Virus record (IMG/VR): IMGVR_UViG_3300009506_000004
Span: 1 to 64,000 of that record
Source of the DNA: a virus
Strand: one strand, 5' to 3'
DNA length: 64,000 nt
The position numbers and the translations under genes were made by a program. The notes below the pieces were generated by a model. It had not been told where the DNA came from. It saw nothing but the letters and a program-made list of their open reading frames with translations, and ran no database searches. This document shows, piece by piece, positions 3,428 through 39,023 of this stretch; the stretch's first letter is position 1; every line of letters begins with the position of its first letter.

Positions 3428-3657
3428 GTTTGATTAGTTCTAATTTTCATCCCCTCTTAAAACCCATCATCAAGACCATACGTCTTAGTGACACAACCGT
3501 CAATGATGACCTCAGCCTTAATAGCGGTATCGTTGACATGAACCGCACTAAACGCACAAGTCTCAGCATCGTCATCATTGATATAATCCTTTACAACCCA
3601 ATTTTCCGTCTCATTGGTAAATCGTACATTGATCATGTTTGGCTCCTTAACTATTCA

Positions 3658-3685
3658 AGTCTAGCTTACAAGGGGCCAGTGTCAA
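3658..3685 (-). promoter_or_regulatory. Sigma70-like early promoter (copy 3)
   Basis: TTGACA-16-TAGACT-TGAATAG, then AAGGAG RBS. Confidence 0.65.
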
Positions 3686-17225: not shown

Positions 17226-17579
17226 TTTCCTCCTCGGGATCTAATTCAAATTCGTCATAATTAAACTCATGCCAACTGTAACCAAAACCAGTATTGACAT
17301 CATCAAATTGAGCTTTAACAGTTGTCCCATTTAATAGGATAAGCGCTGTTTCTCCTTTTAATTCTTCTATATTACCAATATAAGTACCACTTCTCATAGT
17401 ATCTCCTCCCCATATACTCTACCCCAAATTATTCTTTCGTTCAAAGTAACATTTTTTATGTTATGTACAATATCTACATCCATTAGTTCCAATAAATCCA
17501 GAATTGCATTTAGTTCATTTGCTCTACCTACAATCTCTAATTTTCTTACAGTTTCGTCAATCATCATTTCCCCTTTCAG

Positions 17580-17664
17580 TGGCCAAGGTGGGACTCGAAC
17601 CCACATGAGCATAAAGCCCACGGGATTTTAAATCCCGTGCGTATACCTATTCCGCCACTCGGCC
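17580..17664 (-). tRNA. tRNA-Leu(UAA)
   Basis: GGCCGAG/CTTGGCC acceptor, CGGGA-TTTAAAA-TCCCG anticodon arm, long variable arm, GGTTCGAGTCC T arm. Confidence 0.95.
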
Positions 17665-36840: not shown

Positions 36841-37055
36841 TAAAACCCCTCAGTATTTTTATTAAGAAATTTACGAATTTCTGTTAATGCTTTACCAATA
36901 GCTTTATCTTCTCTTTTTTCACTAAATTCATAAAGCATAGAACCATCGATTGTTACCGAAGCTCTATAATAACTTTCATTGCTTCCTCTTTTGACATAAA
37001 TATGGTCAGTTTCAATTTCTATTTTCATAAATTCCTCCTTAATTCTTCCAAATAG

Positions 37056-37164
37056 TGGACATGATCAGTACTGCCCTGATGTCCTAGCAACTCTAACGGC
37101 TTTTCACTAGCGCTTTTAACCGCTTCCTCAAAGGACGAATTGTAGTCGAATCTAGTTCATGCCC
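37056..37164 (-). ncRNA. Mini tmRNA-like RNA (tRNA-like domain only)
   Basis: 5' GGGCATGAACTAGATTCGAC, 3' GGAC-ATCAG-GGCAGTA-CTGAT-CATGTCCA; G3:U70 pair and A73; only ~60 nt between the two halves. Confidence 0.75.
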
Positions 37165-37196
37165 AAACATTTATCAACTAATTCAATATCTTCCAT

Positions 37197-37826: not shown

Positions 37827-38289
37827 TAAGAAAACCCTTTAAACCTATTTCTTTTGGTAAGCATCCTATTAAACTACATTCTAAAGATTCATATTCTTTC
37901 ATAGATAAAGTAAAAATTAAATCTTTTACTAACTGTTTCCAACCTCTTGCATCACATTCATCACCAGCCTCATTTCTATGTAAAGCTTCAATAGTATCAC
38001 GAAGCAATATCAATTTTGTATGTATAGTAAATTCATCCCAATGTATCTTAATCCAATCAATACAAGATCCAACAATGTAACTGCGTCTGCCCAAACAATA
38101 ACGATGTGCAGCTGTTACCATTAACTGGCTATTCGTACCTTCTGATATTTTCATTACCAAGTCCAAAAAGTAGACACACGGAATGCATCACCAAGAAGTG
38201 CATCATAACAATAAAATGCTGCAATAGCTACACAAGTCCAAAAAAGCAAATCTTTCATTTTAACCTCTCTTTCTTTCTAACTTTCTTAG

Positions 38290-38365
38290 TTGGCATGAGT
38301 GGACTTGAACCACTGAAACCTCCTGTTTATAAGACAGGCGCTCTGACCAACTGAGCTACATGCCA
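38290..38365 (-). tRNA. tRNA-Ile(UAU)
   Basis: TGGCATG/CATGCCA acceptor; CCTGT-CTTATAA-ACAGG anticodon arm. Confidence 0.9.
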
Positions 38366-38366
38366 G

Positions 38367-38438
38367 TGAGACCGGCGAGATTTGAACTCGCAATCTTTTG
38401 ATTAAAAGTCAAATGCATTACCATTTTGCTACGATCTC
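38367..38438 (-). tRNA. tRNA-Lys(UUU)
   Basis: GAGATCG/CGGTCTC acceptor; TTTGA-CTTTTAA-TCAAA anticodon arm. Confidence 0.92.
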
Positions 38439-38776
38439 TAATTAATTCTTGCAAATTCTTCATGATATTTCCTTGCTGCTTCTTTGTAAGTTTTAACTGC
38501 TTCTTCTATATCTTCAAAAAGACCTAAATGTTTTCTTTTACCATTTATTTTAATATATGCTCTCCACTTTTTGGCATTATTATCCCAGCAAACACCTTTA
38601 TAACCACTAGTATTATTTTTCTGTTTTCCTTTATTCATACAATTTTGAGAACGAGTTGCAGACCTTAAATTTTTTCTTTTACATTTTAATACACACCATT
38701 TCCATTGATTTAAATACTCATAATCTTCATCAGAAACTATAGCATATTTACCTTGTGTCAATTTTATTCTTTTCAT
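38438..38776 (-). CDS. AP2-domain protein derived from an HNH-AP2 endonuclease with the HNH core deleted
   Basis: LTQGK..SDEDY..QWKW joined directly to NLRSAT..NNTSGYKGV..WRA; lacks the MHR..DH segment present at 13968-14438. Confidence 0.75.
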   Translation of the reverse strand: MKRIKLTQGKYAIVSDEDYEYLNQWKWCVLKCKRKNLRSATRSQNCMNKGKQKNNTSGYKGVCWDNNAKKWRAYIKINGKRKHLGLFEDIEEAVKTYKEAARKYHEEFARIN

Positions 38777-38949
38777 ATTACCTTTAATCTAATTAAAAAT
38801 TCATCGGCATAAGTAAATAGCTAGTTTACTTATGCCGACCAGGAACATTTACCTGTCTCATAGGGTGCTTAACTAGGTTTAGCCCCTGCGTTGGATCCTA
38901 CTAGTCTAGTATTTCAGTATCCCTTGCGGCACATATGGTGCTATAAAAG

Positions 38950-39023
38950 CACCGAGTGGGGGAATCGAACCCACCATTTTCAGATCGAAGGTCTGATGTC
39001 CTAAACCGTTAGACTAACTCGGC
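38950..39023 (-). tRNA. tRNA-Glu(UUC) with C33
   Basis: GCCGAGT/ACTCGGT acceptor; TCAGA-CCTTCGA-TCTGA anticodon arm; GGTTCGATTCC. Confidence 0.85.

Follow-up and report, generated by a model that had tools for sequence, protein, structure and literature searches.

Transfer-messenger RNAs (tmRNAs) reduced to their tRNA-like domain (TLD) have been described from a phage. Hudson, Lau and Williams (2014) listed the RNA of mycobacteriophage DS6A as "TLD only" (PMC4131195), and the published hypothesis for this RNA is that it inhibits tmRNA by titrating SmpB (PMC4131195, PMC11915505). A 2025 tmRNA database paper catalogued nine "Standard, no CDS" sequences, lacking a coding sequence (CDS), alongside 79 phage entries, reported that the DS6A RNA inhibits tmRNA in E. 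coli, and described CDS-less plastid forms, a "re-permuted" mitochondrial gene in Jakoba libera, and tags of 2 amino acids (aa) (PMC11915505). Two-piece tmRNA genes have been reported on marine phages (PMC9004378). Here we describe an RNA element of 109 nucleotides (nt) from a viral genome, found in a window of 64,000 nt (positions 1 to 64,000 of IMG/VR virus record IMGVR_UViG_3300009506_000004), that has the TLD of a tmRNA in one piece. We call it a mini-tmRNA, a term for which a literature search found no use, and extend the name to its relatives. The idea is not new, as both the kind, a TLD-only phage tmRNA, and the hypothesis of a decoy that titrates SmpB are already in print.

That the element is a real phage gene for a mini-tmRNA, a stand-alone TLD of the alpha type, is close to certain. 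Its source is an uncultured marine-sediment phage with a genome of 129,439 bp and 34% G+C; the record has direct terminal repeats and is rated complete, its first 64 kb form the window, and the stretch was found in three DNA runs, all from one marine-sediment study, and in no RNA run. The base-level features listed in an earlier interpretation of the letters alone (the sequence-only reading), which named no strand, are all present on the minus strand. Seven base pairs form the acceptor stem (RNA positions p1 to p7 with p102 to p108: G1:C, G2:C, G3:U, C4:G, A5:U, U6:A, and G7:C), which together with discriminator A73 carries the alanine identity elements; G1:C72, G2:C71, and G3:U70 are invariant in 11 aligned mini-tmRNAs. 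The 3′ half comprises GGAC, a T stem of 5 bp, and a T loop of 7 nt that belongs to a class found in tmRNAs, and the D-loop analogue has the length and sequence found in bona fide tmRNAs (Table 1). The proposal of a stand-alone, tmRNA-type TLD with alanine identity elements is borne out by this anatomy and by the viral relatives described below.

Between UCGAC and GGAC lie 60 nt that fold as a helix-2-like stem (P2) and two hairpins, making a three-way junction. The minimum free energy (MFE) fold, a helix enclosing two hairpins at -30.3 kcal/mol, reproduced the helix-2-like pairing around two small stems that the sequence-only reading had noted. None of the pseudoknots PK1 to PK4 of a full tmRNA was found in this insert, which folds as P2 and two hairpins (pseudoknot prediction was not run). 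The tag frame of a full tmRNA is likewise absent: the candidates, A-L-V-K-S-R-stop or its tail K-S-R-stop, lack an ...AA end and are not conserved in L180, a metagenomic contig with a 116-nt mini-tmRNA. The statement in the sequence-only reading that the RNA has no mRNA or tag domain holds insofar as there is no recognizable tag and is otherwise uncertain, since the loop of hairpin B contains a 9-mer that resembles a frame-setting sequence and short frames run from it to UAG.

A descriptor specifying a 7/7 acceptor stem with G3:U70, UCGAC at the expected distance, a gap of 10 to 75 nt, GGAC, a 5/5 T stem with any T loop, and discriminator A matched the 129,439-bp genome once, at the element, and had no match in 200 dinucleotide-preserving shuffles, which argues that the element is not a product of chance. 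Standard detectors passed over it. ARAGORN made no call there, and the 20 permuted "tmRNA" calls it returned at a lowered threshold, two of which used the T arm of tRNA-Thr, all lay elsewhere and were judged to be noise. Rfam at gathering thresholds gave nothing at the element; RF00023 and RF01849, run over the whole genome, neither called the element nor matched elsewhere, and no other RNA family beyond tRNAs was found. The element, which has no anticodon arm, was not called as a tRNA (RF00005) by Rfam or ARAGORN. The ARAGORN and Rfam checks that had been proposed therefore returned only a sub-threshold match to the mitochondrial tmRNA family RF02544 (20.5 bits against a 65-bit cut-off; E = 0.74), which covers the T arm and 3′ acceptor strand and then runs into the next gene. 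The proposed search for a separate tmRNA piece found none within 500 nt of the element or elsewhere in the genome, and SmpB had no match on the source genome. An interpretation as an attP (phage attachment) site was set aside, there being no tyrosine-integrase match in the genome (serine recombinases were not searched).

By its sequence, the element is the TLD of the alpha (permuted) tmRNA lineage rearranged to standard 5′-to-3′ order. Viral contigs were scanned for the 3′ half by itself (GGAC, N5, GGCAGTA, N9, TCCA), which gave at least 120 matches; the counts that follow are those among the matches listed. A perfect 5-bp T stem was present in 118 of 120, and 117 classifiable loci divided into 98 permuted tmRNA genes, 3 full standard tmRNAs, 3 mini-tmRNAs, and 13 left without resolution, in agreement with the earlier assignment of the GGCAGUA T loop to alpha-type tmRNAs; the loop thus occurs in at least 98 permuted and at least 3 standard tmRNA genes. 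In the permuted genes, the 5′ acceptor strand and D loop lie 7 to 213 nt downstream of CCA. The 5′ halves of the tmRNA genes were located by acceptor complementarity only, with no 5′ pattern, and the D loop was 13 nt long in 100 of 104, with the consensus AA[A/C]UAGGAUCGAC. The D loop of the element has the same 13-nt length and 11 of the 13 consensus bases, and its identical string occurs once in the set. The nearest TLD among the matches listed, at L111, belongs to a permuted gene on a viral contig of 36% G+C and is identical at 42 of 49 compared positions. That the element might itself be a permuted gene was rejected, its halves being in standard order with only 60 nt between them.

Several of these loci were also called by the standard tools. 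Rfam called RF00023 at L052, L077, and L080 (76.1, 63.6, and 63.5 bits, respectively) and both RF01849 and RF04321 at L111, and ARAGORN found permuted tmRNAs with tags at L016, L043 (tag ANDNFASEDFALAA), L051, and L181. L052 (649-1024, plus strand), L077 (4021-4456, minus strand), and L080 (9058-9419, minus strand) are full standard-order tmRNAs on viral contigs, with the GGCAGUA T loop and UAG-type D loops; ARAGORN misses all three, and by our own reading of the sequence their tags start A-N-D-N.

To these can be added stand-alone mini-tmRNAs on other viral contigs. A scan with fixed D-loop and T-loop motifs, a free acceptor, and a gap of 10 to 40 nt found 46 loci, among which 32 had a 5/5 T stem and a 7/7 acceptor; G3:U70 and A73 were present in 32 of 32. 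The remainder were 13 chance matches (at most 3 T-stem pairs) and 1 at a locus edge. The 32 reduce to nine unique sequences in five lineages, of 85, 77, 68, and 63 nt plus a 78-nt family on 28 contigs. As a background control, the same scan with a gap of 41 to 71 nt gave nine matches, none structured, which indicates that the size class of the window element is otherwise absent from IMG/VR. Across the 11 aligned mini-tmRNAs, compensatory changes occur in 7 of 12 TLD pairs, with G1 to G3 and their partners never varying; the 100% pairing in this alignment reflects how the sequences were selected, which does not hold for the diversity of the pairs. Nine of the 11 are followed by an encoded CCA, the exceptions noted being the window element, L020, and L129.

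No other TLD piece lies within 500 nt in 34 of 35 mini-tmRNAs checked (the exception is L181), and the 32 mini-bearing viral records, two of them at least 90% complete, have neither SmpB nor an alpha_tmRNA match above cut-off. The proteins that these records have in common with the source phage amount to one weak match (E = 2.5e-5). Among prokaryotes, represented by one genome each of 185,579 species, the anchored mini pattern matched once, at L179, so mini-tmRNAs look phage specific. ARAGORN called none of 11 mini-bearing loci and Rfam at gathering thresholds found nothing in L180, and because neither tool calls it the mini form is likely to be under-annotated.

Some candidates were discarded. 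A first, strict pattern gave three matches that by eye were coding sequence without stems. L181, taken at first for a 114-nt mini-tmRNA, is a duplication junction inside a real permuted tmRNA: positions 1-520 hold a partial tandem duplication in a high-GC permuted tmRNA gene (tag ANDNEALAIAA), which illustrates one route from a permuted gene to a TLD in standard order. L179, L182, and L183 have a T arm and no resolved 5′ strand. At L179 (7888-7948, on a contig of a Saccharimonadaceae metagenome-assembled genome), a GGCAGUA T arm and the 3′ end CAGCUCC-A-CCA are preceded by UCGAC 12 nt upstream, and the complementary 5′ acceptor strand is absent where expected. In L020 (60-140, minus strand), a second 5′ acceptor-like strand and a D loop ending GUAGUUCGAC lie about 45 nt downstream of the 85-nt mini-tmRNA, and no matching T arm is visible in the part of the sequence examined.

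The mini-tmRNA of L180 has the same three-way-junction insert as the window element, and L180 and the source phage have no protein in common. The internal domains of both RNAs fold to the shape [[][]], which was obtained in 29 (window) and 81 (L180) of 1,000 shuffles. At the place of hairpin A, L180 has a 4-bp hairpin of different sequence, and its hairpin B has a 6-bp stem, also of different sequence, and an 18-nt loop. In both hairpin-B loops the 9-mer GCUAGUGAA stands 1 or 0 nt past an AAAG; a common stretch of at least 9 nt arose between the loops in 55 of 5,000 shuffles, and a viral scan for the 9-mer with the T arm gave no matches. The UAGUG in this motif is close to UAGUC, the frame-setting sequence of E. 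coli, in which the A is reported to be nearly invariant, followed by a purine and preceded by a run of A (PMC2481249), and it likewise stands after a run of A. The frames after UAGUG read K-S-R-stop from p61 in the window RNA and N-K-I-R-F-A-stop in L180, and those after UAAAA read A-L-V-K-S-R-stop and G-stop-stop, with first codons GCG (Ala) and GGC (Gly), respectively. The loop motif may offer SmpB a second point of contact, function as a micro-frame, or be vestigial.

A decoy or a tag-less rescue function, as put forward in the sequence-only reading, is what we infer from the conserved sequence elements and from the published accounts of DS6A. We give a probability of roughly 55% to the interpretation that the RNA acts as a charged, SmpB-binding competitor of host tmRNA. 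In this model, the RNA would be transcribed together with its minus-strand neighbors and excised in the manner of the phage tRNAs, with RNase P acting at the 5′ end and a pathway for CCA-less transcripts at the 3′ end. CCA is encoded in none of the seven phage tRNAs, and in five of the seven the trailer begins C-U, as it does in the mini-tmRNA (CUA), which fits shared, tRNA-type processing. Searches of the phage genome for PolyA_pol, to which CCA-adding enzymes belong, and for the RF-1/ArfB, RtcB, and tyrosine integrase families found no match, so the phage relies on factors of its host and gives no sign of being temperate. As no CCA-adding enzyme was recognized on the phage, CCA would be added by the host, whose alanyl-tRNA synthetase (AlaRS) would then charge the RNA with alanine through G3:U70 and A73; retention of this identity set in every mini lineage argues that charging matters. 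Host SmpB and EF-Tu would bind through the conserved UCGAC, GGAC, and T-arm elements, and competition with host tmRNA for SmpB and stalled ribosomes would leave fewer stalled products, phage proteins included, with a proteolysis tag.

Several points weigh against the competitor model. Inhibition of tmRNA is reported not to require chargeability (PMC4131195), and G3:U70 and A73 in all mini-tmRNAs, with CCA in 9 of 11, fit an RNA that reaches the ribosome better than a pure SmpB sponge. All relatives were found via exact motifs from the window element, by which the motif columns are conserved by construction and divergent relatives were missed. The fold of the element is only a modest gain over shuffles (z = -1.58), too little for the energy by itself to prove much. 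Around the element, no dedicated promoter or terminator is conspicuous (10 promoter-like sites versus 10.1 expected). Finally, a plain decoy leaves the conserved loop motif of the long form unexplained.

That loop motif is the starting point for the alternative that survives best, which we nevertheless consider unlikely: a minimal complete tmRNA, with hairpin A as a stand-in for pseudoknot 1 and the loop of hairpin B as a tiny mRNA module with a resume codon and UAG. Stalled ribosomes would then be released with alanine plus 1 to 7 residues and no degradation tag, a tag-free rescue. The [[][]] shape common to the window RNA and L180 though their stems differ in sequence, the shared AAAG and 9-mer, the likeness of UAGUG to UAGUC, the short frames to UAG right after UAGUG in both RNAs, and Ala and Gly as first codons after UAAAA would all suit such an RNA, and the literature reports that tags of only 2 aa exist in tmRNAs (PMC11915505) and that pseudoknots can be replaced without loss of activity (PMC2481249). 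However, the motif is known in two sequences only, which allows no codon-level test, and the two candidate registers disagree between the RNAs, leaving no conserved peptide and no hydrophobic ...AA end. In both registers a purine precedes the putative resume codon, where natural tmRNAs are reported to strongly prefer C or U (PMC2481249), and part of the frame is taken up in the stems of hairpin B and P2. At about 43 nt, the loop that P2 closes is, by structural reasoning (not computed), very short for threading through the mRNA channel, and the 63- to 85-nt mini-tmRNAs are too short for any frame. The probability drops slightly further for the claim that the 109-nt RNA and that of L180 are the smallest natural complete tmRNAs, built of a TLD, a 9-bp helix 2, a hairpin for pseudoknot 1, a loop-borne frame-setting motif, and a few-codon frame to UAG; if it were true, the phage would free stalled ribosomes with a few harmless residues instead of the host degradation tag.

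It is less likely again that the element is a tRNA mimic outside trans-translation, whether a decoy or sensor blocker aimed at tRNA- or tmRNA-recognizing defense proteins of the host, a partner RNA of a Ro60-like protein, or a processing signal between messages. The phage does have a Ro60-like protein (28237-29802) with a tRNA-like RNA beside it, which suggests that tRNA mimics are already in its repertoire. More than 250 bacteria and phages are reported to encode Y RNAs with tRNA-like domains beside Ro60 (PMC4201824), defense systems with SmpB-like domains have been predicted (PMC11090510), and the element lies between two genes of the same strand. Yet 7 kb separate it from the Ro60 gene, which has an adjacent RNA of its own, and local similarity between the two RNAs is at chance level (285 of 1,000 shuffles). 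The D and T loops of the element are of the tmRNA type and not of the tRNA or YrlA type, and a processing signal needs no strict AlaRS identity set, yet all mini-tmRNAs keep it. The mini-bearing records, moreover, have no protein in common with the source phage save the one weak match (E = 2.5e-5), and L180 has none.

We think it improbable that an internal deletion or a duplication junction in a once complete phage tmRNA left the element behind as a decaying, functionless remnant. Phages often carry permuted tmRNAs whose TLD differs little from this one, and the partial duplication of a permuted gene in L181 does yield a pseudo-mini in standard order. Against this, no other tmRNA piece lies within 500 nt or elsewhere in the genome, all 12 of 12 TLD pairs and all identity elements are intact, stems covary in five further mini lineages, and the unrelated L180, which shares no protein with the phage, keeps the architecture and the loop motif on stems that differ in sequence. 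That AT-rich intergenic DNA resembles a TLD here by chance, for which the low fold z-score and the silence of every detector might be cited, is very unlikely in view of the descriptor result (one real match and none in 200 shuffled genomes), D and T loops that fit a large natural class, and the compensatory changes among relatives.

Table 1. Features of the mini-tmRNA, its neighbors, and the phage tRNAs. Coordinates are window positions unless marked; RNA position p corresponds to window position 37165-p.
Feature	Coordinates	Strand	Remarks
Mini-tmRNA gene, whole, 109 nt	37056-37164	-	Sole descriptor match in genome; 0/200 shuffles
Acceptor stem 5′ strand, p1-7, GGGCAUG, holds G3 of G3:U70	37158-37164	-	G1-G3 invariant, pairs 4-6 covary across 11 mini-tmRNAs
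Acceptor stem 3′ strand, p102-108, CAUGUCC, holds U70	37057-37063	-	
Discriminator A73, p109	37056-37056	-	A in 11/11 aligned mini-tmRNAs
Stemless D-loop analogue, 13 nt, p8-20, with UAG and terminal UCGAC	37145-37157	-	
P2 (helix-2-like) 5′ strand, p20-28	37137-37145	-	MFE fold: 20-22 pair with 79-81, 23-28 with 72-77
P2 3′ strand, p72-81	37084-37093	-	MFE fold
Hairpin A, p30-40, 4-bp stem, 3-nt loop, at the place of PK1 in full tmRNAs	37125-37135	-	
Hairpin B, p41-70, 7-bp stem, 16-nt A-rich loop	37095-37124	-	
Loop 9-mer GCUAGUGAA, p54-62, contains UAGUG and overlapping triplets UAG, UGA	37103-37111	-	Common to L180 loop
GGAC, p81-84, ahead of T arm	37081-37084	-	Read directly; in scanned tmRNAs and mini-tmRNAs present by construction
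T arm, p85-101, 5-bp stem, loop GGCAGUA (p90-96, window 37069-37075)	37064-37080	-	4/5 stem pairs covary
3′ trailer CUA, CCA not encoded	37053-37055	-	
Upstream neighbor open reading frame (ORF), 209 aa	37197-37826	-	Weak 5′-nucleotidase-like match; context only
Downstream neighbor ORF, 62 aa	36840-37028	-	No family match; context only
Phage tRNAs	17579-17664, 38289-38438, 38949-39023; genome 67981-68618	all -	

The element takes up most of a 168-nt intergenic gap (37029-37196) with a minus-strand ORF on each side, and the strong ribosome-binding site of the 62-aa ORF lies 12 nt past its 3′ end. It lies 1.1 kb downstream of a tRNA cluster that is preceded by a strong promoter-like site at 39197-39169; in L035, similarly, the 68-nt mini-tmRNA (3612-3679) is 1 kb from a cluster of five tRNAs (1926-2585). 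The seven phage tRNAs are Leu-UAA, Ile-UAU, Lys-UUU, Glu-UUC, Pro-UGG, Met, and Thr-UGU. A single C separates tRNA-Lys from tRNA-Ile, and an ORF for an AP2-domain HNH endonuclease (38438-38776, minus strand) stands within the cluster between tRNA-Glu and tRNA-Lys. Among GenBank phages, megablast of 2.5 kb and blastn of 991 nt, the 109-nt element, the 78-nt mini-tmRNA, and the L180 mini-tmRNA gave nothing meaningful. Searches of IMG/VR for synteny through flanking and core proteins found no relative with the 368-aa and 826-aa proteins and, with the 209-aa protein, one unrelated high-GC contig from which the RNA is absent.

The Ro60-like protein, encoded on the minus strand, is 42 to 46% identical to Ro-like proteins of actinophages. 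Just upstream of its gene, at 29985-30113 on the same strand, is a 129-nt tRNA-like RNA that Rfam calls as a tRNA (51.1 bits) and ARAGORN does not call; it has the normal order of a tRNA, with a 61-nt insert replacing the anticodon loop. This is probably a Ro-associated Y-like RNA that ends at the acceptor stem, unlike the YrlA described in PMC4201824.

YrlA-type Y RNAs resemble the mini-tmRNA in being phage-encoded tRNA mimics without an anticodon, and some are reported to be cut by RNase P and given CCA (PMC4201824). They differ in having D and T arms of the tRNA type and a Ro-binding stem and in lying beside Ro60, whereas the element has tmRNA-type loops and is 7 kb from the Ro60-like gene, which places it outside that group (a Ro-binding motif was not searched for). 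Closer are the mitochondrial tmRNAs (RF02544, including that of Jakoba libera) and the plastid forms of about 65 bp from Mallomonadaceae, reported as TLD only with no tag frame (PMC11915505). The consensus T loop of RF02544, GGCaGUA, is the same as that of the element, and this is the only Rfam family that touches it; its members and the plastid forms, however, are organellar, usually permuted, and work with nucleus-encoded SmpB, whereas the element is phage borne. The short-tag bacterial tmRNAs, with 2 aa as in Fermentibacterota, indicate that a tmRNA can work with a one-codon frame (PMC11915505); these, known here by description only, are reported with a tag CDS, while the frame of the element is doubtful.

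With the permuted alpha-type tmRNAs (RF01849/RF04321), the element shares the D loop AA[A/C]UAG..UCGAC, GGAC, the T loop GGCAGUA, and G3:U70. In the permuted genes, the 5′ acceptor strand comes after the T arm, the 3′ acceptor strand, and CCA, whereas the element is one piece in standard order, and permuted tmRNAs carry pseudoknots and a tag frame where the element has no recognizable tag.

DS6A remains the nearest described system. We located its gene at JN698994 28478-28560. Like the element, it is phage encoded, stands alone, and has its halves in standard order; the acceptor stem is 7 bp long and includes G3:U70, A73 is present, the D loop has no stem and ends in UCGAC, and the T arm has 5 bp. 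In both RNAs the insert is short and has no tag frame, and the trailer is CUA where CCA might stand. The element in turn has what marks the "TLD only" standard form: it stands alone in standard order, with a short insert, no tag frame, and no tmRNA pieces nearby. The two differ in class: the T loop of DS6A is the canonical UUCGAUU and its D loop is of the UGG type, and the element is of the GGCAGUA/UAG class. DS6A scores 43.2 bits with RF00023, just below the 47-bit cut-off, where the element has no match, and the DS6A match is 83 nt with an insert of about 30 nt, whereas the element has 109 nt, an insert that forms a three-way junction, and the conserved loop motif. DS6A is a temperate actinophage with an integrase; the source phage has no tyrosine-integrase match. 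An RtcB-like RNA ligase is encoded in DS6A at JN698994 49300-50502, and the source phage has no RtcB match.

Relative to DS6A and the published descriptions, three things are new: a TLD of the alpha type arranged in standard order, an insert that forms a three-way junction and has a conserved loop, and the count of relatives. In the published accounts cited here, TLD-only phage tmRNAs amount to the single example of DS6A and the nine "Standard, no CDS" database entries. Our findings indicate a further origin of the TLD-only form, in the alpha (permuted) lineage that is common among marine phages, and its recurrence on at least 32 other viral contigs on which neither SmpB nor a full tmRNA was found. 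That every lineage keeps the alanine identity elements argues for charging, which bears on how these RNAs act and points to the ribosome rather than to passive titration of SmpB. The long form, in which the loop is conserved, is a construct small enough to test what minimum of RNA suffices for trans-translation and in what way phages adjust the rescue of host ribosomes.

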